A stretch of 49,821 nucleotides of DNA, from assembly GCA_046760505.1 (NCBI GenBank), contig JBHIEG010000014.1, positions 1-49,821 on the forward strand. The letters are read 5' to 3'. The notes beneath the pieces were generated by a model that saw only the letters and a program-made list of their open reading frames with translations, was not told the origin of the DNA and made no database searches. Shown here piece by piece: positions 430 to 11,512 of the stretch. A program made the translations under genes and the position numbers. Every line of letters begins with the position of its first letter. Position 1 is the first letter of the stretch. This stretch comes from Candidatus Hydrothermarchaeota archaeon. Lineage in GTDB: Archaea > CAYFZR01.

Positions 430-1954
430 GATTTTTGAGGTAAAAAGATTCATTTGCTTCAAGCAGGCCTTTTATATCATCTTTAGATATTACGACATCA
501 AATATCAAAAATCCTCGCTTGTTCAGATCATAAAGAGCATTATCTATTATTTTCTCTCTAAATAACTTATTAAGCATTTTATTTTCAATGTTTACAAGGA
601 TTTCCTTTCTTTTCTCCTCCAATTTCTTCTTACTGGCCTCCAGTATTTCGATTTCATCCCCGATGGTATTTTTATTCTCAAGATATTCAGTGAAATCTAT
701 TCCCCTGTTTTCAAAGGTTTCTTCTAGTTTGACCAATTCTTTTCTTTTTGATACTATTTTCCGGTCTATTTCGTTTATTTTCTTGGATAATTCTTGATAT
801 TCCTTTATCACATCGTTACTTGAGCCCATCAAAAGATTGGAAAGAGATTCGTATAAAAGTATCTGATTTGACATTGTGGTTATAGATGTTTCTATTGGAT
901 CTTTTCCAACGATATTCGCTACCTTGTATCCGTACCACTTGAGTAAATTGGCAGCATCCTTATCAACGCCAAATAGACATATTTTTCTTGTGTTCAAGTC
1001 TCTCAAGAATTTGTAGTCCTCACTTCCAAGTTTATTTTCTCTGAGCAATACCATCATTCCCAATTCTCCACTGAGTGCAGTTCCAGTTAGAGGTTTGTCG
1101 TCGATATCAACTACCATTATTCTCATATCTTTTTTTGACATGTAATCTCTTATCAGCATCTCACTAGTCTCAAAGGGAGATTTTGGAGGGTATCTTTCTA
1201 CACGCATCCCTAACTTAATCAAATCTGTTTCAGCATCTTCCATAGCATTTTCTGGTCCGCCCACTAAAATCACGCGCTTAACACCTAGTTTCAAAAGGGT
1301 TTTTCTAGTTTCATGGTCGAGAGGTCTTGAAGAATATACTATGATTTTATTTTTCCTCTCTGAAACTTGGTCTCTTGAGAATTTTCCGAGTTCTCTTCCT
1401 GTTGTTACATCATATAACGTTACAGTTCCGTCCTTGTACCTCCTAGAAATCTTGTGAGGATCAAGTTCAACTGATCTTAGAGGTCTTACATAGATCAAGG
1501 GAACGCCGAGTTTTGATGCAAGAGAGGATGCAACCAAGGAATCTGCATAACTATCTCCAAAACTCATCACAACTGTCTCAGATCCCCTGGTCCAGAATTT
1601 TAAAGCTACCTTTTGGGCTGTTTCGAATCTTGTGGGCCCCCAAATTCTTTCTACACTCACATACTTCTTGAGTTCTTCCTCGATTTTTTCAGAAACAGCA
1701 ACAGGTCCGCCTATAATGAATAATTTCTCTGGCTTTACCTGTTGCAATGCATAAATCAGCCTCCAATCTAAGAAGTTATTTGGCGTTACCAAAATTGGAG
1801 AAGATGAGAATACAGATGCGGGAGATCCTACCAATGCATCTGCAAATGGATCTTCGGTTACCAGTATTATGTTTTGGGAGGTTGAAAGAATTGGCATGAG
1901 AACAAAAATGATTGTAGCAACGATGAAAGGTGGTTTAATTTTTATCAAAGTCAC
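401..1954 (-). CDS. Secreted cell-wall-binding repeat 2 (CWB2)-type protein with C-terminal coiled coil
   Basis: Signal peptide; repeated FADALVGS..PILVT / YADSLVAS..PLIYV, IIGGPVAVS, RIWGPTRFETA motifs typical of CW_binding_2; GTG start preceded by GAGGT. Confidence 0.85.
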   Translation of the reverse strand: MTLIKIKPPFIVATIIFVLMPILSTSQNIILVTEDPFADALVGSPASVFSSSPILVTPNNFLDWRLIYALQQVKPEKLFIIGGPVAVSEKIEEELKKYVSVERIWGPTRFETAQKVALKFWTRGSETVVMSFGDSYADSLVASSLASKLGVPLIYVRPLRSVELDPHKISRRYKDGTVTLYDVTTGRELGKFSRDQVSERKNKIIVYSSRPLDHETRKTLLKLGVKRVILVGGPENAMEDAETDLIKLGMRVERYPPKSPFETSEMLIRDYMSKKDMRIMVVDIDDKPLTGTALSGELGMMVLLRENKLGSEDYKFLRDLNTRKICLFGVDKDAANLLKWYGYKVANIVGKDPIETSITTMSNQILLYESLSNLLMGSSNDVIKEYQELSKKINEIDRKIVSKRKELVKLEETFENRGIDFTEYLENKNTIGDEIEILEASKKKLEEKRKEILVNIENKMLNKLFREKIIDNALYDLNKRGFLIFDVVISKDDIKGLLEANESFYLKNLMEREVSSG

Positions 1955-3222: not shown

Positions 3223-3930
3223 ATGATGAGCAGCATTGCTGAAAAATTGGCGAAAGAAATGGCAGGTGAGATAACTCTATCTAGCGAGCCTGGAAAAACT
3301 TTAAAAAAATGGAGAGAGATATTTGGAATAACCCAAACCGACCTTGCCAGATACCTAGAGACTCATCCTTCAGTTATAAGCGATTATGAAAGCGGTAGGA
3401 GAAAATCACCAGGAGCATCTGTAATAAAAAAGATTGTAACTGCCCTGATAGAAATAGATGATAGAAGAGGAGGGGAGATAACAAAGGCTTTTGAGCCTTT
3501 GTTGATCGGGGAAGTAAAAACCGAGGCGATCATAGATATAAGAGAATTCAGCATTCCGGTAAAGGGCTTTGAAGTCTTGGAAGCAACAGAAGGGGAATTA
3601 CTCGTAAACAGGGATCAATTATCAAGGGAAATATATGGGTACACCGTAATCAACAGTTTAAAGGCTATCCTAGAATTCTCTTCAGAAGAATTCATAAGAT
3701 TGTACGGATGGACGAATAGGAGAGCCCTTATTTTTACCAAGGTTACTGCTGGAAGATCTCCAATGATAGCTATAAGAGTATCTCCAATGAAGCCAGGCAT
3801 GGTTGTACTCCATGGCGTAGAGAAGATGGACGAACTTGGATTAAGAATAGCGGAGATAGAGAAGATACCTTTGATCATATCTCGATTACCCCTGGATGAG
3901 CTAGTCAATAAACTCAGGCAGATTGGGTGA
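3223..3930 (+). CDS. Conserved archaeal XRE-HTH transcriptional regulator (COG1709-like)
   Basis: LKKWREIFGITQTDLA..PSVISDYESGRRKSPG HTH; C-terminal IFTKVTAGRSPMIAIRV motif. Confidence 0.9.
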   Translation: MMSSIAEKLAKEMAGEITLSSEPGKTLKKWREIFGITQTDLARYLETHPSVISDYESGRRKSPGASVIKKIVTALIEIDDRRGGEITKAFEPLLIGEVKTEAIIDIREFSIPVKGFEVLEATEGELLVNRDQLSREIYGYTVINSLKAILEFSSEEFIRLYGWTNRRALIFTKVTAGRSPMIAIRVSPMKPGMVVLHGVEKMDELGLRIAEIEKIPLIISRLPLDELVNKLRQIG

Positions 3931-5147
3931 AGGAATTGGACCACCTTAAAATGTTGAAGGAAGGGAAAATAAAGACCCATGAACTGGAAAAGTTTGTATC
4001 TCCTAGTGAAGCAATCAGCATTAGAAGAAAATATCTTGAAGACACATTGAATGTAGATCTTACAGATATTGGTAGTTTTATAATAGATCCTGAAATTGCT
4101 TCTCGTTATAACATTGAGCATATGATAGGGGCCATACAGGTTCCTCTAGGGATAGCAGGACCCGTAAGAATAAACGGAGATTATGCAAAGGGAGAATTCT
4201 ATCTACCTTTGGCAACGACAGAAGGAGCATTAGTCGCTTCTGTAAACAGAGGTTGCAGCATAATTAATGCTTCTGGCGGCTCCTATACAAAAATTCTTGA
4301 GGACAAAATGACTAGGGCCCCTGTTTTTCAGGCTAAAAACATTCATGAGGCTATTAAATTTAAGGAATGGATATACAGAAACTTTGAGAAATTAAAGGAG
4401 GAGGCAGAGAGCACAACAAGGCACGGAGAACTAAAAGACGTGCGTGCATGGTTGGTCGGGAGGACTGTTTTTCTAAGGTTTTCATTTGACACAAAGGATG
4501 CCATGGGAATGAACATGGTAACCATTGCTACGGATAAGTGCGTTGATTTCGTTGAAAAAAATTTCCCAATCAAATGTATATCTCTCTCTGGAAATCTCTG
4601 TGTTGACAAAAAACCATCAGCCCTAAATCTAATCCTCGGAAGAGGTAAAACAATCATAGCAGAGACATTTATTCCTGAAGAAACGATTAAGGATGGACTA
4701 AATACTTCTTCTAATTTGTTGGTAGAGGTAAACTATAGAAAAAACCTCATAGGTTCTAGTCTGGCATCTTCTTATGGGTTCAACGCACACTTTGCCAATA
4801 TCATTGCGGCCATGTTTCTGGCAACAGGGCAGGACATCGCTCAGGTTGTTGAGGGCAGCCACGGTTTTACTCTCGTTGAAAAAGAGGAAAAAGGAGTTTA
4901 TTTTTCTGTTACGCTGCCGGCGCTAGAAGTAGGCACGGTGGGAGGAGGTACTAGATTAGAGACTCAGAGAAACTCCCTGAAGATACTCGGAATAAAGGAA
5001 GGATCCGCAGGTAAAAATGCTAAAAAATTAGCAGAAATAATTGCTACCGGAGTATTGGCAGGAGAGATATCGTTAATTGGAGCATTAGCTGCAAAAGAAC
5101 TTGCTAGCTCTCACAAGCATTTTGCGAGAAGAGTAGAGGAGGGATAG
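3927..5147 (+). CDS. hmgA: Hydroxymethylglutaryl-CoA reductase (NADPH, class I)
   Basis: PLATTEGALVAS, DAMGMNM, GNLCVDKK, GQDIAQ, GTVGGGT motifs. Confidence 0.98.
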   Translation: MKELDHLKMLKEGKIKTHELEKFVSPSEAISIRRKYLEDTLNVDLTDIGSFIIDPEIASRYNIEHMIGAIQVPLGIAGPVRINGDYAKGEFYLPLATTEGALVASVNRGCSIINASGGSYTKILEDKMTRAPVFQAKNIHEAIKFKEWIYRNFEKLKEEAESTTRHGELKDVRAWLVGRTVFLRFSFDTKDAMGMNMVTIATDKCVDFVEKNFPIKCISLSGNLCVDKKPSALNLILGRGKTIIAETFIPEETIKDGLNTSSNLLVEVNYRKNLIGSSLASSYGFNAHFANIIAAMFLATGQDIAQVVEGSHGFTLVEKEEKGVYFSVTLPALEVGTVGGGTRLETQRNSLKILGIKEGSAGKNAKKLAEIIATGVLAGEISLIGALAAKELASSHKHFARRVEEG

Positions 5148-5148
5148 A

Positions 5149-6093
5149 ATGGAAGTATGCGACTTATTAATTATAGGAGGAGGTCCAGCAGGATTGACTG
5201 CAGCGATATATGGAGTCAGAGGCGAACTTGAAACGATAGTTTTGGAATCAGAAATACCTGGTGGACAAATGAATCTTAGCGGGAAGATAGAGAATTATCC
5301 TGGCTTTGAATCAATAACAGGGTATGAACTATCTTTAAAGATAAAAAAACACGCAGAAAGTTGTGGAGCCGTGATTAAATCTCCTGAAATGGCAACAGAA
5401 ATTAACTTTGAGGACAATTACATAATCGTAAAGAGTGAAAAAGAAGATTACAAAGCAAAGTCTTCCATAATTGCATCGGGGGTTAGACCAAAGGAACTGG
5501 GAGTTCCTGGAGAGAAGTCTCTTGTGGGAAGAGGCGTGAGTTATTGTACAGTGTGCGATGCGCCTTTCTTCAAGGATAAGAAGGTTGTTGTGGTAGGGAG
5601 GAGCATGCCAGCTGTTTTGGGCGCTCTTACATTGGAAAAGATAGCATCTGAGGTCAAATTATTGGTAAATGGGGAAAAACTCTTGGCAACAGCCGGGGAA
5701 TCTCTGATGACAAGATGGCTTGAAAGAAGCAGTGTGAAAACCCTTTGGAACACTGAGGTAAAAGAGATCTTGGGAGATACCCATGTTGAGGGCGTTTTAG
5801 TCAAGGATAAGGAAAAGGAATACATAATTGAAACAGATGGAGTATTCATACAATCTGGAAAGGTCCCAAACAGCGAAATAGCCAGGAAAGCAGGTATAAA
5901 GGTTGATAGGAAGGGATTCATATTGGTCGATGAGCATATGAGAACAAATAAGAAGGGAGTTTTTGCATGCGGCGATGTTACAGGAGGTGTTATGCAGTTA
6001 ACCGTTGCCATGGGTGAGGCAACCATAGCGGCTATAAATGCATACAACTACTGCTGCGAGTTCAACAGGAAGGTGCTTGGAAAACCATGCTAA
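5149..6093 (+). CDS. trxB: Thioredoxin-disulfide reductase
   Basis: IIGGGPAGLTAA, IENYPGF, GRGVSYCTVCD, TNKKGVFACGD. Confidence 0.9.
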   Translation: MEVCDLLIIGGGPAGLTAAIYGVRGELETIVLESEIPGGQMNLSGKIENYPGFESITGYELSLKIKKHAESCGAVIKSPEMATEINFEDNYIIVKSEKEDYKAKSSIIASGVRPKELGVPGEKSLVGRGVSYCTVCDAPFFKDKKVVVVGRSMPAVLGALTLEKIASEVKLLVNGEKLLATAGESLMTRWLERSSVKTLWNTEVKEILGDTHVEGVLVKDKEKEYIIETDGVFIQSGKVPNSEIARKAGIKVDRKGFILVDEHMRTNKKGVFACGDVTGGVMQLTVAMGEATIAAINAYNYCCEFNRKVLGKPC

Positions 6094-6992
6094 AAAATTT
6101 TTTATCTGCAATACTTTTGTTATCAATTCTGCCGGCATTCTGTTTAGAAGAACCTGAATTTAGCAGACCAGTCGTTGCATCCGTAAATTCGACTTTAGAG
6201 ATAATTTTTTTGGATGAAAGTACAGTTTTTGTCAGGGAGACAGACTACTTCTTTTACATCCATGGAAAGGACAACGAGACAATTATTTCATACAAAATAC
6301 CGATGAAAACCAATATGGTAAGACTTTATGCAAATAGAGACGTAAGAAAGGAGATAGATTATGAAATAAGAAATTCAGAGATAAAATTCTCGTTAGAAAA
6401 TTTTAAGAAAGGTGAATCTAGGACCGTCACATTAGAATACGTATACAAAATTAATCCTGAAATAAAAGATGCATTCTTCCTTTTCTTCAATCTGGGAAAG
6501 TATTACTCGAGTAGAATACTTATCCCTCCCTTAAACAAGCAGAGATTTTCCATAATAACTTTCATAAGATTGCCTCCAGATAACCAACCAAAGATCAAAG
6601 AGAATTCGATCCATGTGGATGATACTTGGTACCTGCACTACAAGATAGGGGGCATAAACGAAAATTCATTTGATTACGTGATGGTAGAGTACGGCAATTT
6701 TAATCTCATTGAGAAGAAAAAAAGAGAAACTTACCTGTATTTGATGATATTTTCGCTTTTCACCATATTTTTCATTACTTTCTATTACTATAAGTTTAAG
6801 GGAGCGTATGAGGAAGACGTTCCTGTACTTCGAGCCAGATATAGGGCAATCGAATCAAAAATGAAAAGACTTGAAGAAGAGTTCAGATCCAATAGGATAC
6901 CCCGGAATATGTACGAAAAAAGAAGAAAGGAGATAGAAAGAGAATTAAAGAATATAGAAAATAAAATGAGGAGAAAAAATGAAAATAACTAA
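6087..6992 (+). CDS. Exported beta-rich protein with TM anchor and C-terminal SHOCT-like helical tail
   Basis: Signal peptide, TM near aa 215-235, tail KRLEEEFRSNRIPRNMYEKRRKEIE. Confidence 0.75.
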   Translation: MLKNFLSAILLLSILPAFCLEEPEFSRPVVASVNSTLEIIFLDESTVFVRETDYFFYIHGKDNETIISYKIPMKTNMVRLYANRDVRKEIDYEIRNSEIKFSLENFKKGESRTVTLEYVYKINPEIKDAFFLFFNLGKYYSSRILIPPLNKQRFSIITFIRLPPDNQPKIKENSIHVDDTWYLHYKIGGINENSFDYVMVEYGNFNLIEKKKRETYLYLMIFSLFTIFFITFYYYKFKGAYEEDVPVLRARYRAIESKMKRLEEEFRSNRIPRNMYEKRRKEIERELKNIENKMRRKNENN

Positions 6993-7848
6993 TTTATCCA
7001 AAATTATTTTATTTTCGATCATTTTATCCATTTTATTTCCATCTCTGACTTCTTTCGCACTTGAGAATCAATCTAATCTAATCTATCCTCAGGTCAATCT
7101 TAAGATGGACAGGAAGATAACAGTTGTTGATGAAAAAGTTATTACCGAAGAGAAAGTAAGAATGAAAAACACTGGATTGGAGGATATAGAGGGCAGGTAC
7201 TGGACATTTTCTTTGAACAGCGAGGATGTAAAGATTTATGATTCAATTGGGGAGTTACCAACGAGGAGAAATGTGGGAAAAGAAGGAATAGATATTATTT
7301 GCACATTTAGATATCCATTGAAGCATAATGACACATATACGTATACAATCAAAGAGACTAGAAGAGACATATTGGTCACATCTAAGGAATTAAAAAATTA
7401 CATAGAATCCCTCAAGAATAAATATGAGAAAGGGGAGATATCTGAAGAAGTTTACAAAAATCTCACAGGACAATACGAAGAAATTTTAAAACATGAGAAT
7501 GCGTGGATTCTCTATAACTGGATATCTACCATATATCCTTTTCCCACCTATGATGTTACCACCAAAATAATATTGCCCAAAGAAGCAATCGTTCTGAGTG
7601 TGAATCCGAAACCACAGGAAGTAAAAAAAGAGGATGGGAGAATTGTTATAACTTATAAGAGAGATTACATACCTCCAGGACAAAATCCACCGATTAAAAT
7701 AGTTTTCAAGGCGCCTTTAAGTTTAAGTATCGCAGGGAGAGTTTCTTCTCTAAAGTTCAATCTCTATTTTATTCTTTCATTATTTCTTATCGCTGGAGTA
7801 ATTTTTTATTTCATTCACAAAAAAAGAATGTTTGGAGGAAAAGAGTAA
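6979..7848 (+). CDS. Exported beta-rich protein with internal SHOCT-like insert and C-terminal TM
   Basis: Signal peptide, insert LKNKYEKGEISEEVYKNL, C-terminal TM plus basic tail. Confidence 0.75.
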   Translation: MKITNLSKIILFSIILSILFPSLTSFALENQSNLIYPQVNLKMDRKITVVDEKVITEEKVRMKNTGLEDIEGRYWTFSLNSEDVKIYDSIGELPTRRNVGKEGIDIICTFRYPLKHNDTYTYTIKETRRDILVTSKELKNYIESLKNKYEKGEISEEVYKNLTGQYEEILKHENAWILYNWISTIYPFPTYDVTTKIILPKEAIVLSVNPKPQEVKKEDGRIVITYKRDYIPPGQNPPIKIVFKAPLSLSIAGRVSSLKFNLYFILSLFLIAGVIFYFIHKKRMFGGKE

Positions 7849-7858
7849 TTTTTAAATA

Positions 7859-8446
7859 CTAGGCGGAAAAATGGAATATCAATTCCCTTGTTATTCCCCA
7901 AGAGAGCAGGAAAATCAGCCATATGAGACCGTATCCGATGAATTCTATTATAATCGTTAAAAAAACCCGATATGGAATCCCCTGCCTTCTTGTTTGCGAT
8001 CTTATCCTTTTTATTGGGTTTCTTGTATGTAGATGTACTCTGATCATCAGGGCAATGGTTAAGATAAACAGTGTGAGGAAAACTAGGCTCTCTTTCATGT
8101 AAGCGATTTCCAATGCATTTATTAACCCTTTAAATTTTGGTGAAACAGTTTGCAATGAAAGAAAGGTCTCATACCCTTTTAACAATCCTATTCCAGCGAA
8201 AACTGCAATTATATATCCAAAATATCCAATCAAGGATCCAATCAGGGATGTTATGTAGAATTCACCCTCCTTATTCTCTATGAATTTTGTAACTTTTATT
8301 TTTTCACCGAACACGGTGGACACTATCAGAAGTAAACTTGCTATCACACATACGGTATATCCACCGATTGCAAGTGGAGCAGAAATGCCGTGAAGGATAC
8401 CAAAAACCTTGTAGTAATCAGGAAGATCTGGAGGATATAATACCAT
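7859..8446 (-). CDS. 4-TM protein, probable degenerate CcsA/CcmC-like (cytochrome c assembly superfamily)
   Basis: LHGISAPLAIGGY, MKESLVFLTLFILTIALMIR and C-terminal FHF parallel the CcsA pattern, but no WWD motif; 4 nt downstream of ccmF-C. Confidence 0.55.
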   Translation of the reverse strand: MVLYPPDLPDYYKVFGILHGISAPLAIGGYTVCVIASLLLIVSTVFGEKIKVTKFIENKEGEFYITSLIGSLIGYFGYIIAVFAGIGLLKGYETFLSLQTVSPKFKGLINALEIAYMKESLVFLTLFILTIALMIRVHLHTRNPIKRIRSQTRRQGIPYRVFLTIIIEFIGYGLIWLIFLLSWGITRELIFHFSA

Positions 8447-8450
8447 GCAA

Positions 8451-9455
8451 TCACCTTGCTAATTTTTTCTCTACAACATTCAATTCTTTTTTATACTTAT
8501 TTGATAATTCTTCATATTTTTCTCTGCTTATTTTTTTCTCATCCATCAGTATTTTTATTTCTTTCAATAAACTTTCGAGTTCTGTTTTCCTTAACAAGTA
8601 GTCGATCTCGATTTTTTCCTCTTTCGGCGTTCTAAAAGACATGAACGCACCAATTATATAAAAAAATACTCCAATCCAGATAAAATTAACAAAAGGTATC
8701 ATTTTAATCTTTATTGGAGCGTATACTTTTTCGTGAAAAGAGGTGGTGCCCTGAAATATGATATGAATATCCATGGAAAGGCTTCTATAAATAAGAGTAT
8801 GAGTTAGATAACCCCAGTTTGGTATTCTGTAGTTTATCAGTTCTGCAATGCCTTTTTTCACTAATTTTTCGCGGTTGAATATTTCTACGTACGCCTTTTC
8901 AGTAACCAGTGAAGGAGTGATTTTCTTATCAAATCTATCAACTTTTATGGAGTAACCATCTATCTCAATAGATCTCCCTTCAAAGAAGTTTTGTTCAATT
9001 TCTTTTGTTAGTGTAGTGCTTAAAACAGCGCCTAGGAGTATAAGAACAGTACCAGTATGAATCAGTTGAAACCCATAGCTTCTTACGGTTTTGTCTAGGT
9101 CTCCTGAGTAGGTTCTGAAGAACCTTATCCCAAGACTCATGAGAGCAAAGATTAGAATTATATACGAGGCATTTTCCAAGGGATTGCCTAGGTTTATTAT
9201 TTTTGATCCGACAATAGATATGAAGAGACCAGAGGTTGCTAGTGCTATAGAATATTTCCAATTGATTGAACCAACAGTTAAACAGACGATCATGCAAAGA
9301 ATCAAAAGATATGTGTAGGGTAATGTAGCCCTATTGAACCAATTAGGCTCTTCGGGATGCATAAAAATCCCATAGAGTGATACGGCAGTTAAGATGATAA
9401 ACGATCCGATTGCCAGGCCGAATGTAGACAAACTTATATCTTTTTTGGTTTCCAT
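8451..9455 (-). CDS. ccmF: Cytochrome c biogenesis protein CcmF, C-terminal half
   Basis: YGFQLIHTGTVLILLG (TM-His2 region), exported beta domain, PFVNFIWIG; extra SHOCT-like tail. Confidence 0.85.
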   Translation of the reverse strand: METKKDISLSTFGLAIGSFIILTAVSLYGIFMHPEEPNWFNRATLPYTYLLILCMIVCLTVGSINWKYSIALATSGLFISIVGSKIINLGNPLENASYIILIFALMSLGIRFFRTYSGDLDKTVRSYGFQLIHTGTVLILLGAVLSTTLTKEIEQNFFEGRSIEIDGYSIKVDRFDKKITPSLVTEKAYVEIFNREKLVKKGIAELINYRIPNWGYLTHTLIYRSLSMDIHIIFQGTTSFHEKVYAPIKIKMIPFVNFIWIGVFFYIIGAFMSFRTPKEEKIEIDYLLRKTELESLLKEIKILMDEKKISREKYEELSNKYKKELNVVEKKLAR

Positions 9456-9503
9456 GTTTGACTCAAGAATACTCCGGGTTAAAAGGTTTATGGAGTCTCC
9501 GAT
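9456..9503. promoter_or_regulatory. 48-bp bidirectional promoter region for the two ccmF halves
   Basis: Central TTAAAA (9479-9484) flanked by inverted ACTCC (9471-9475) / GGAGT (9492-9496). Confidence 0.5.
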
Positions 9504-10475
9504 ATGCCACTTGTAGCAACTATGCTGATTCTTGCGTCTTCAATCGCATTATTCCTAGGTTGTTTTTCGGGTTTAACCTATGTATCTAAGGAAAAAGAGG
9601 ATTTAAAAACATTATCAAATTTTCTAGGTCTGATATCATTTTTTCTTGTTACTTCTTTATCTATATTACTTTTTTATTATTTTTTCACAGACAACTTTGG
9701 GATACTCTATGTTTACAAGTACTCTAGCGCTGATCTAAAGTGGTATTATAAATTATCTGCCTTTTGGGCAGGAAAAGAGGGAACGATTCTACTTTGGATC
9801 TGGTTTATCCTTTTATTTTACGTTTTTCTGCTCAGGATAGAATCTAAAAACGAATTTGTTTACTGGACAACGAAAGTATTAATCCTTATGGTCGCTTTAA
9901 TTTTTATTCTAGCGATGAAGAAGTACAGCGATCCGTTTCAACAAATTTTTCCTGAACCAAAATCAGGTTATGGTTTAAATCCATTACTTAAGGATCCTTG
10001 GATGATAATACATCCACCAATCACATTTTTAGGATACGCTGCCTCAACAGTTCCTTTTGCTGCGAGTATTTCTCACCTTATATTCGTCTTGAGAGGATTA
10101 ATTGGAGGAGAAAAGATCGATGATTCAAACACAGACTGGGAAGAAATCGCTAGACCTTTCGCAAGATGGGGGTGGCTTTTCCTGTCTTTAGGAATAGCCA
10201 TTGGGGGTTTTTGGTCCTATAAGGTACTTGGATGGGGAGGTTTCTGGGCTTGGGACCCGGTAGAAACAGCTTCCTTAGTTCCTTGGTTGATTTGGTCTGG
10301 ATATTTACACTCATCCACCTTACTTCGAAGTATGAAGATGAGAGGAGATGAGAGTACAAGGATATTGAATCCTTTATCCATGTTTCTTGCAGTTCTTTGT
10401 TTTGTATTGGTTATTTTCGCAACTCTTGCAACGAGAAGTGGTTTGTTTAGAGATATCTCTCCTCATTCATTTTGA
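9504..10475 (+). CDS. ccmF: Cytochrome c biogenesis protein CcmF, N-terminal half
   Basis: WAGKEGTILLW, GLNPLL..IHPP, WWD motif WSYKVLGWGGFWAWDPVETASLVPW, YLHS; ends at RSG..SPHSF. Confidence 0.95.
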   Translation: MPLVATMLILASSIALFLGCFSGLTYVSKEKEDLKTLSNFLGLISFFLVTSLSILLFYYFFTDNFGILYVYKYSSADLKWYYKLSAFWAGKEGTILLWIWFILLFYVFLLRIESKNEFVYWTTKVLILMVALIFILAMKKYSDPFQQIFPEPKSGYGLNPLLKDPWMIIHPPITFLGYAASTVPFAASISHLIFVLRGLIGGEKIDDSNTDWEEIARPFARWGWLFLSLGIAIGGFWSYKVLGWGGFWAWDPVETASLVPWLIWSGYLHSSTLLRSMKMRGDESTRILNPLSMFLAVLCFVLVIFATLATRSGLFRDISPHSF

Positions 10476-10476
10476 T

Positions 10477-11463
10477 TTACCATCTCTCGTAATAGTCCTC
10501 TATCCTTATCGTATCCTCAGGATGCGGAGTAGATACTTCGTGAATAATGAGATTTTCGCTCGCAAATATAGAGTGGGGGACATTAGGTTTTATTCTTACC
10601 GTATCGTTTGTTCCAAAGTATTCCTTTCTATCTTCAAACTCCACGAATCCAGAGCCCCTTACTATGTATAAGGTCTCATCTTTTTTCTTGTGATAATGGA
10701 AACTTGTTTTATAATCTTCTTTTATAAATATCTCTTTTGTAAGGTATTTTTCGGTACTTATAAGTATTTTTTCATATCCCCAAGGCTTATCAACTCTGTT
10801 CGCATATTCTTTTCTTACTTCCTCGAGTTCTTTACTTGTATCAATTGCCATCCAGAATACGTCCTCTGAATAATATCCAAGTTGTCTATTCTTGGCCAAC
10901 AAAGGAAATACCGTCTTTTCTATATCTCCAGACTCAAAATCATTTAGATCTAATCCTTTAATGAAGTATACTCCTCCATTGATATAGTAATCAAGCATTG
11001 GCTTCTCTCTAAATGACTTTATGTATGTGTCTCCCAATTCTACTATGCCATAGGGACTCCTCATTCGCGTTACATACATTGTTACAGGATAATCTAAAGA
11101 AATGGAGTAATCAATCATCTTTTTAATGTTTAAATCGCATACAACATCTCCGTTTCTAACAAGTATGGGTTCATCCACGTCTGCTAGACCTTCCCTTATT
11201 GCGTTCAGTGTGCCTCTAGGAGTATCTTCTACGTAGTATTCTATTTTCAGGCCCTTGTAATTAGAGCCGAATCTCTCCTCAATTTTTTCGCTTAAGTGTC
11301 CTGCAAGCATTCTTACTCTTTCTATCCCTGCGCTCTTTAGATCAAACAACTGCTTGTCCAGGATAGTATAGTTATCCTTAAGTTCGATCAAAGGTTTCGG
11401 AATCTCATCTGTTAGAGGCTTCAATCTCTTTCCATAGCCGCCACATAAAATAGCACCGATCAT
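10477..11463 (-). CDS. NDP-sugar pyrophosphorylase with C-terminal cupin (mannose-1-P guanylyltransferase/PMI-like)
   Basis: [18 protein letters not shown]; C-terminal [14 protein letters not shown] cupin. Confidence 0.9.
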
Positions 11464-11512
11464 GTTTTTAAAGAGTTGAAAATATGGATTTAACTGTTTT
11501 GGTCATACCGGT

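Follow-up and report, generated by a model that had tools for sequence, protein, structure and literature searches.

The question raised by this locus is whether CcmF, the haem lyase of System I cytochrome c maturation, can operate as two polypeptides whose genes are transcribed away from one another. The DNA analysed, referred to throughout as the window, is a stretch of 49,821 nucleotides on contig JBHIEG010000014.1 (contig C14) of the Candidatus Hydrothermarchaeota archaeon assembly GCA_046760505.1, and the genes concerned lie between positions 8451 and 10475. An earlier description, made from the letters alone and termed here the sequence-only reading, had presented them as a ccmF split into two head-to-head genes 48 bp apart, and every detail of that description was confirmed by the open reading frames, by matches to PF01578 and PF16327 and by complementary coverage of NCBIfam models. 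Indeed, the list of open reading frames for the window contains two intact, divergent frames at this position, both beginning with ATG and separated by 48 bp (9456–9503). The forward-strand gene (9504–10475) encodes a 323-amino acid protein, the N-half, with N-terminal helices, P-His1, the WWD domain, TM-His1 and P-His2; its translation includes MIIHPPITF, GWGGFWAWDPVETASLVPW and SGYLHSS, and ends in DISPHSF followed directly by the stop codon. The reverse-strand gene (8451–9455) encodes a 334-amino acid protein, the C-half, whose translation includes YGFQLIHTGTVLILLGAV, with the motif QLIHTG, and for which AlphaFold2 and DSSP indicate five membrane helices, then a beta domain on the outside, one more membrane helix and, at the end, a helical tail in the cytoplasm. 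The two genes are probably those for a CcmF-type cytochrome c synthetase (the System I haem lyase) that works as a complex of two subunits, the assembly of the subunits and their binding of haem being the predicted parts of this reading.

Family membership was examined by profile, sequence and structure comparison. The N-half belongs to the Cytochrom_C_asm family (PF01578; E 5.3e-35, 121.4 bits against a cut-off of 29.9), and the C-half, whose likeness to CcmF_C had been left for a profile search to decide, matches that family above its threshold (PF16327; E 1.1e-12, 48.3 bits against a cut-off of 28.7). Among the NCBIfam whole-protein models, the N-half spans positions 9–301 of 631 in TIGR03145 and the C-half positions 337–573 of 578 in TIGR00353, both scoring under the whole-protein cut-offs, as halves should. 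Since the halves cover successive stretches of the CcmF/NrfE models, they are complementary parts of one CcmF/NrfE protein. Additionally, the N-half matches the Thermus thermophilus CcmF by sequence (6zmq_A; E 5.5e-29) and shows 37% identity to the host's own full-length CcmF over its residues 6–294. The AlphaFold2 model of the C-half has a mean predicted local distance difference test score (pLDDT) of 80.7, and the Protein Data Bank (PDB) entry 6ZMQ, the T. thermophilus CcmF, is its sole Foldseek match with E ≤ 0.001 (E 2.7e-09, query template modelling (TM) score 0.55, 280 columns). The two genes are, on this evidence, a CcmF cut in two.

In the published scheme for CcmF, TM-His1 and TM-His2 hold a stable transmembrane b-haem, and P-His1 and P-His2, together with the WWD domain, hold the haem that is to be attached (PMC10746174). 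Equivalents of all four histidines are kept in the split pair, as the sequence-only reading had proposed with reference to the E. coli numbering (H173, H261, H303 and H491). On the forward strand, H170 in IHPP (10011–10013), the equivalent of P-His1, aligns with HPP of the host full-length CcmF and HP of 6ZMQ; H269 in YLHS (10308–10310), the equivalent of TM-His1, aligns with FLH of both proteins; and H321 (10464–10466), the equivalent of P-His2 and the third residue from the C-terminus in SPHSF, aligns with SVHAF of the host full-length CcmF and of L015, a fused relative. The WWD core (GWGGFWAWDPVETASLVPW) lies between the first two of these, from G243 to W261 (10230–10286). When 20 N-half-type proteins were aligned, most columns of this core proved invariant, as did H170, H269 and H321. 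The equivalent of TM-His2 is H133 in QLIHTG of the C-half (9057–9059, reverse strand), which aligns with YLVHFS of the host full-length CcmF and HLIHLG of L015, and which is invariant across 13 C-half-type rows, one of them (P0008) later shown to be a fragment of a fused protein. For the two b-haem histidines, the comparison is one of residue conservation. With TM-His1 on the N-half and TM-His2 on the C-half, the ligands of the b-haem fall one to each chain, and to this extent the earlier suggestion of a b-haem bridging two polypeptides stands. It is not special to the divergent layout, since the same holds for any CcmF split between P-His2 and TM-His2, including the published split of the Methanosarcina type (PMC9084895), of which the C-half in genome G122 also carries the His motif.

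The position of the break was located by comparison with L015, the nearest fused relative (48% identical; an open frame of 603 amino acids, 597 from its ATG). The N-half aligns to residues 53–300 of this protein, and residues 40–261 of the C-half to residues 378–585; the stretch of L015 without a counterpart in either half consists of one hydrophobic helix and a basic loop, directly past P-His2, and the stop codon of the N-half falls two residues beyond P-His2. The pair thus departs from the single polypeptide with about 15 transmembrane helices, both in being two genes on opposite strands and in having one helix of L015 absent from both products. As judged from the alignment, the transmembrane helix that follows P-His2 in the fused relatives is deleted in the split pair. 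The loss of this helix makes the predicted topology consistent, with the N-half ending outside and the C-half beginning inside. P-His2 would then sit on a free C-terminal tail, which is plausible as a working variant; the residue has been reported to lie on a flexible loop to which ligand switching is ascribed (PMC10746174). The same ISPHSF end that is found in both species of the genus is also found in P0154, a protein of 299 amino acids, encoded on a Logan contig of 4,963 bases, that is 44% identical to the N-half by BLASTP (46% in the alignment) and groups with it in a tree of N-domains, with a Shimodaira–Hasegawa-like approximate likelihood ratio test (SH-aLRT) support of 93.

The prospect that the halves work together was examined by modelling the two chains as a complex, with both alignments and haem included. 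The interface score (ipSAE) was 0.86 in three of three runs compared with 0.00 for the best of three controls, with a partner pLDDT of at least 82 and contact agreement of at least 87%; the mark applied to such models was reached by 116 of 157 solved complexes and by 2 of 215 mismatched pairs. Part of the modelled interface is formed by the helix bearing H269, packed against two membrane helices of the C-half, its first and its last. In the mechanism envisaged, the N-half would form the active site, with the WWD haem platform and the outside ligands H170 and H321, and would also contribute the b-haem ligand H269, and the C-half would supply the second b-haem ligand, H133, together with six membrane helices and the outside beta domain. 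The chains would assemble in the membrane, and the b-haem would accordingly be held between two polypeptides.

Next, the remainder of System I was sought in the host genome. The sequence-only reading had noted that no ccmA, ccmB or ccmE gene and no CxxCH protein was visible, which holds within the window but not for the genome: a ccmA-like gene, ccmB, ccmC and ccmE and at least 14 multihaem frames are present elsewhere. Contig C18 carries a gene for an ATP-binding cassette (ABC) ATPase, ccmB, ccmC and ccmE together, with scores of 76.1 bits for CcmE, 122 bits for CcmC and 29.5 bits for part of CcmB; the ABC ATPase was judged ccmA-like from its sequence, without a library scan. The CcmE protein has the C-x-x-x-Y motif, which is the usual form in archaea. 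Contig C20 encodes the full-length CcmF (634 amino acids), with ccmH directly after it and a gene for a 376-amino acid membrane protein before it. A census of CxxCH motifs found at least 14 frames with 4–13 such motifs each, and CxxCK sites are absent from all 15 multihaem-type frames inspected, although scattered CX3CH, CX4CH or C-x-CH sites occur in some. The only CxxCH frame on contig C14 is 65 amino acids long (10672–10866) and overlaps a sugar nucleotidyltransferase gene on the opposite strand. The impression of an isolated locus, which the window alone conveys, is therefore mistaken, since the genome holds CcmABCE, a full-length CcmF with CcmH, a third WWD pair and many multihaem cytochromes. 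The split pair would most likely work with the host CcmABCE, in parallel with the full-length CcmF–CcmH, on many multihaem cytochromes; the halves would presumably be co-expressed and the two CcmF enzymes would presumably share substrates.

The third WWD protein, encoded on contig C2 (locus L005, 1489–2418, reverse strand), is 309 amino acids long, matches PF01578 (E 2.1e-19) and ends in GVHTYA, three residues after its His, in which it resembles the N-half in the window. A gene for a 194-amino acid membrane protein (912–1496, reverse strand) overlaps it downstream, and the pair also occurs in the genome of the sister species (L143). Compared with the C-half profile, the helix of the 194-amino acid protein that contains G-L-L-H-L-G pairs weakly with the helix of TM-His2 (hhalign probability 37%, E 3.6e-4), and from these likenesses the two genes may represent a minimal split CcmF-like pair that is encoded on one strand and has no outside domain. 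A signal-peptidase-like gene stands beside this pair, with multihaem cytochrome frames 3–6 kb away (C2 74884–77263). On contig C18, an open reading frame for a Cys-rich protein of 127 amino acids (approximately 3264–3719, reverse strand), beginning M-I-C-K-N-C-G-A-C-C, lies between ccmB and ccmC, and no Pfam family was found for it. The sister genome contains the same four WWD genes, the same operon with ccmF and ccmH (there preceded by a gene for 378 amino acids) and the same small pair (309 and 192 amino acids). The two species of the phylum among the genomes searched have genomes of about 2.1 Mb with 38% G+C, that of the host with up to 13 CxxCH motifs in a frame and three CcmF-type gene sets. 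The many multihaem cytochromes and the three CcmF sets suggest a metal- or electrode-respiring vent archaeon from a barely sampled lineage.

How widespread such an arrangement might be was examined in three surveys. A search of 401 archaeal genomes, including the host, with PF16327 gave a match at E ≤ 0.001 in 44, and short CcmF_C frames (317–362 amino acids) above the cut-off were confined to seven genomes of one Methanosarcinaceae-like family (f42) and two of the present genus; one further short frame scored under the cut-off and was cut by a contig end. In all four genomes of the Methanosarcinaceae-like family that were checked, the two genes share a strand and the C-half comes immediately before the N-half, with an overlap of 4 bp in G122; this order matches the ccmF1-ccmF2 operon published for Methanosarcina acetivorans (PMC9084895). 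Among metagenomes, the best 80 of 582 confirmed loci, ranked by likeness to the N-half, comprised 73 with N- and C-parts in one frame, six cut by a contig end and one stopped on a contig of 1,489 bases, and in none of these 80 was a C-half found on the opposite strand. The 45 species-representative loci comprised 34 that are fused, the divergent locus of the sister species, six cut by the end of the locus or contig, a Methanolobus metagenome-assembled genome (MAG) with the C-part before the N-part on the same strand (L116), L133, one apparently frameshifted and one with a 563-amino acid frame lacking a C-half match. L133, from a Methanobacteriota archaeon MAG, has a gene for a 376-amino acid N-half-type protein (3393–4523, forward strand) that keeps the helix past P-His2, with no C-half recognised in either 3.5-kb flank, and would represent an unlinked or C-less form of split CcmF. 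HMMER searches with the C-half recovered both stand-alone and fused relatives, at about 30% identity, including a stand-alone family annotated in Methanocellales, and a word-indexed search returned only the C-half itself and its orthologue in the sister species. Across the surveys made, the divergent layout, which the sequence-only reading did not know from elsewhere, occurs only in this genus. A literature search on ccmF and divergent transcription yielded no split ccmF among the papers listed. Fission of CcmF is recurrent and its gene order plastic, being that of a same-strand operon, a divergent pair or unlinked genes, and inverting a single gene would turn either same-strand order into the divergent layout.

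A quick maximum-likelihood tree of the N-domain (33 rows) placed the window pair in a clade of 20 rows (SH-aLRT 99), which also takes in split forms from Methanosarcinales and Methanocellales and fused forms, such as L015, which is encoded in a ccmA-B-C-E-F operon. The host full-length CcmF falls in the other half of the tree, with sequences from Archaeoglobus and Desulfovibrionaceae. Given these placements, the split pair is read as the archaeal-type enzyme of the lineage, whose relatives lack an adjacent ccmH, standing beside a CcmFH-type enzyme.

The possibility that the head-to-head order is an artefact of assembly or binning, for example an inverted join at 9456–9503, deserves consideration given that the genome is a fragmented MAG of 142 contigs, and the sequence-only reading had itself asked whether reads support the junction. 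Logan contigs span it in all four sequencing runs that contain the stretch, and neither joints nor loose ends nor indels were reported; a single contig crosses the whole of 7800–11500 in three of the runs and 7800–11319 in the fourth, at word depths of 21–36. The four runs are four samples of one hydrothermal-vent study, possibly with the source sample among them. The sister species, which is the only other species of the phylum among the genomes searched and was assembled independently, has the same head-to-head pair with a gap of 47 bp, and shares the sugar nucleotidyltransferase gene past the N-half and the genes for a 195-amino acid membrane protein and a helical-motif protein past the C-half. 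With single contigs crossing the junction without alternative joints and an identical arrangement in another species, an artefact is scarcely conceivable. A second possibility, already disfavoured, is that the full-length CcmF–CcmH operon on contig C20 has made this CcmF redundant and that the pair is its decaying remnant, the split copy being short of one transmembrane helix and an intact CcmF being present in the same genome. Between the two species the proteins are 78% (N-half), 75% (C-half) and 81% (195-amino acid protein) identical, and the ratios of nonsynonymous to synonymous substitution (dN/dS) are 0.15, 0.11 and 0.09, respectively. Both halves are under purifying selection and are working genes, neither artefact nor relic. 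Since neither frame is interrupted in either species, the WWD motif survives along with the four histidines, and a third lineage (P0154) retains the ISPHSF end, decay is highly improbable, if slightly less so than an artefact.

Several results weigh against the reading of the pair as two subunits of one working enzyme. No cytochrome gene or ccmH lies beside the split pair. The C-half is very divergent, being about 30% identical by HMMER to its nearest relatives outside the genus, and a phmmer search of the PDB with its sequence found no CcmF match, only a chance-level MIT-like match to its tail. The result of the complex model may be a memory of the single-chain 6ZMQ, in which case it would indicate likeness to CcmF without proving binding, and haem was carried in the model but unscored, so that the geometry of H269, haem and H133 stays outside the result. 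The host genome, moreover, has an estimated contamination of 5.67% across its 142 contigs; countering this, contigs C14, C18, C20 and C2 have G+C contents of 38.0–38.8%, and the genes looked for in the sister genome, namely ccmC of C18 and the CcmF-type genes on C14, C20 and C2, are all present there. A further point comes from Methanosarcina acetivorans, where a split CcmF takes part in cytochrome c maturation with both of its halves (PMC9084895): without the gene for the C-terminal segment, a faint band of the holo-cytochrome MmcA persists (PMC9084895), which indicates that a C-half can be partly dispensable. The N-half alone might accordingly be a working haem-handling enzyme, the C-half having drifted, with the 195-amino acid protein, to an accessory or other role in which no obligate complex is formed. 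The transcription of the genes apart and in opposite directions would suit this, as would the location of the WWD domain and both P-His residues in the N-half, the greater divergence of the C-half (the N-half is 44–48% identical to its nearest outside relatives) and the N-half-type gene of L133. Against it, adjacency and layout are kept between species, TM-His2 is invariant, the C-half has a dN/dS no higher than that of the N-half, the CcmF fold is retained in the C-half and the complex model passes its controls, and we regard this explanation as improbable. The remaining alternative concerns the role of the pair and not its structure, namely that it is a dedicated lyase of the NrfE/SirE kind, acting on one odd haem site or one very large cytochrome, with the full-length CcmF–CcmH as the general enzyme. 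The three CcmF-type gene sets and the unusual CX3CH, CX4CH or C-x-CH sites of some multihaem frames are in keeping with this, and anaerobic methanotrophic (ANME) archaea have multiple CcmF paralogues tied to particular multihaem cytochromes (PMC9012536). The window contains no cytochrome gene, however, the inspected frames lack CxxCK, and the tree joins the pair to CcmFs of ccmABCEF operons (L015) and to the Methanosarcinales enzymes, with the host full-length CcmF grouped instead with Archaeoglobus and Desulfovibrionaceae. A dedicated role is therefore tentative and on balance unlikely, although it is the most credible of these alternatives, and the preferred reading remains that of a two-subunit CcmF serving many cytochromes.

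Viewed as a two-subunit CcmF, the pair may be compared with split and fused forms described previously. In M. acetivorans, CcmF1 (MA3305) is the C-terminal and CcmF2 (MA3304) the N-terminal segment, encoded in a ccmF1-ccmF2 operon (PMC9084895). The present pair is similar in consisting of an N-half with the WWD domain and P-His residues and a C-half with the CcmF_C domain and TM-His2 motif, in the lack of an adjacent ccmH, and in having ccmABC and ccmE elsewhere. It differs in that its genes diverge, whereas those of the Methanosarcina type lie on the same strand in an operon, C before N, and in that the N-half of the Methanosarcinaceae-like family (349 amino acids in G122) continues for about 45 residues past P-His2, including the hydrophobic helix that is deleted here. 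The fission may, from these sequences, have occurred independently of that of the Methanosarcina type; the branching of the two split clades is unsettled, with fused forms lying between them. Bacterial CcmF is one polypeptide of 15 transmembrane domains and requires CcmH (PMC10746174). The split pair shares with the E. coli and T. thermophilus (6ZMQ) proteins the order of domains, the WWD motif, P-His1 and P-His2, TM-His1 and TM-His2 and the outside beta domain, but differs from bacterial CcmF in being made of two chains with one helix less, in having no ccmH alongside and in the helical tail that its C-half has in the cytoplasm. In plants, CcmF is encoded as ccmFN (N1 and N2) and ccmFC, two or three pieces that are thought to assemble; unlike the present pair, the plant genes are organellar and dispersed, with other break points and no shared promoter. 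Fissions of CcmF are reported to have occurred repeatedly and independently in plant mitochondria (PMC7139807). The ANME archaea and Ferroglobus have several CcmF paralogues, among them 'CcmF3', the larger of the two genes of a split CcmF, and cytochrome clusters are accompanied by genes for a signal peptidase and for a membrane protein that lacks annotation and has a Trp-rich loop (PMC9012536). The host is likewise a multihaem-rich archaeon with several CcmF paralogues, some of them split, and the company of the pair on contig C2 resembles that of those clusters; no head-to-head order is mentioned in the available text of PMC9012536, the figures and supplements of which may show gene orders. 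Dedicated CcmF homologues include NrfE, for the CxxCK site of NrfA, and the lyase of SirA in Shewanella (PMC6976685; PMC9012536). The split pair is like these in being a second CcmF-type enzyme beside a general one in a cytochrome-rich organism, but those lyases are single-chain proteins encoded beside their substrate and thiol-redox partners and have a known odd motif, none of which was seen here.

The intergenic region (9456–9503) was compared between the two species. Of 50 aligned columns 39 are identical, which is no higher than for coding DNA, and within them two blocks are perfectly conserved. The first (9456–9466) adjoins the start of the C-half gene; the second (9478–9495) contains TTAAAA, the centre of which lies about 26 nt from the ATG of the C-half and about 22 nt from that of the N-half, and also GGAG, 8 nt before the ATG of the N-half. 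Archaeal promoters have a TATA box centred approximately 26 nt upstream of the start site, and leaderless mRNAs are common. The spacing would fit a leaderless transcript for the C-half, and for the N-half a transcript that is near-leaderless or led by a Shine–Dalgarno sequence, with an overlapping promoter. Both start codons border the 48 bp, so the region must carry, or be overlapped by, both promoters; the further claim of the sequence-only reading, that a single tiny bidirectional promoter serves the pair, is conjecture for which the two conserved blocks are what can be offered. A sigma-70 promoter scan of the region gave two sites against 1.5 expected, a result that is not meaningful for an archaeon, and no Rfam family was found anywhere in the window. 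A search for RNA sequencing runs containing the locus found none.

Only 4 bp past the end of the C-half gene, and on its strand, lies the gene for the 195-amino acid membrane protein (7859–8446, reverse strand), which has four helices and belongs to no known family. It has the same position in the sister species, is better conserved between the species than are the CcmF halves, and was found in 2 of the 401 archaeal genomes searched, both of this genus. No Pfam or NCBIfam match of note was found for the protein, which showed no relation to the 194-amino acid protein of contig C2 and to the C-half profile, and the Atlas provided weak leads only (feature scores of 0.82 or less; a DUF4149-like model at a TM-score of 0.61). 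The gene is probably an operon partner of the C-half, its membership in the CcmF system being uncertain. The C-terminal tail of the C-half itself (8454–8624, reverse strand; residues 278–334) consists of two long helices past the last membrane helix, with the motif K-I-S-x-E-K-Y-E-E-L. In the AlphaFold2 model these helices span residues 278–305 and 311–333 with a pLDDT of 81–96. The fused relative P0003 ends in a similar tail, and residues 276–334 matched no Pfam family up to an E value of 10, apart from one chance-level row.

The 376-amino acid protein encoded on contig C20 (locus L002, 2356–3486, reverse strand), directly upstream of the full-length ccmF and ccmH as in the sister species, begins with a signal or anchor helix, which is followed by a beta-rich part on the outside, by a helix in the membrane and, in the cytoplasm, by a helical tail with the motif G-x-I-S-E-E-x-Y-E-x-L. 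Two similarly built proteins are encoded near the split pair, at 6087–6992 (301 amino acids) and 6979–7848 (289 amino acids), both on the forward strand. Their BLASTP matches to the 376-amino acid protein (E 4e-04 and 8e-06) are confined to the helical tail or to the membrane helix plus tail, and no Pfam family was found at threshold for proteins of this kind. They could, by this likeness, be a lineage-specific accessory of cytochrome maturation, or the resemblance could be coincidence. A SHOCT domain shared by the K-I-S-x-E-x-Y tail and the 301- and 289-amino acid proteins was also considered and was not borne out, the best match to PF09851 being that of the 289-amino acid protein (E 0.12). 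On the same strand, the interval 3223–6093 encodes a helix-turn-helix (HTH_3) regulator, a 3-hydroxy-3-methylglutaryl-coenzyme A (HMG-CoA) reductase and a thioredoxin-reductase-like flavoprotein with C-x-x-C, after which come the two membrane-anchored helical-motif proteins.

A CcmF split between P-His2 and TM-His2 is already known, from the same-strand operon of Methanosarcina. What is new is the divergent layout and a break two residues past P-His2 with the loss of one transmembrane helix. New too, it seems, is the presence alongside it of a full-length CcmFH and of what may be a third, minimal pair, in a vent archaeal phylum of two species. Beyond this the finding is descriptive, a modest rearrangement of a known split that leaves the picture of archaeal cytochrome c maturation unchanged. 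A more far-reaching conception, which as a whole is rather doubtful, is that the lineage has a specific set of two-chain haem lyases, in which P-His2 would be borne on a free extracellular tail, the b-haem clamped between chains and the ratio of the chains fixed by one 48-bp, bidirectional and largely leaderless promoter, with the minimal CcmF of contig C2 acting on the neighbouring multihaem cytochromes; if true, this set would reveal which parts of CcmF haem attachment really needs. The CcmF step is the least understood of System I, the role of the b-haem and the hand-over of haem by P-His2 both being open. In this respect the split CcmF is a natural construct, in which the b-haem ligands lie on separate chains, P-His2 sits on a free tail and the chains may be expressed and mutated separately, and the locus shows how plastic the gene order of split membrane enzymes is in archaea.

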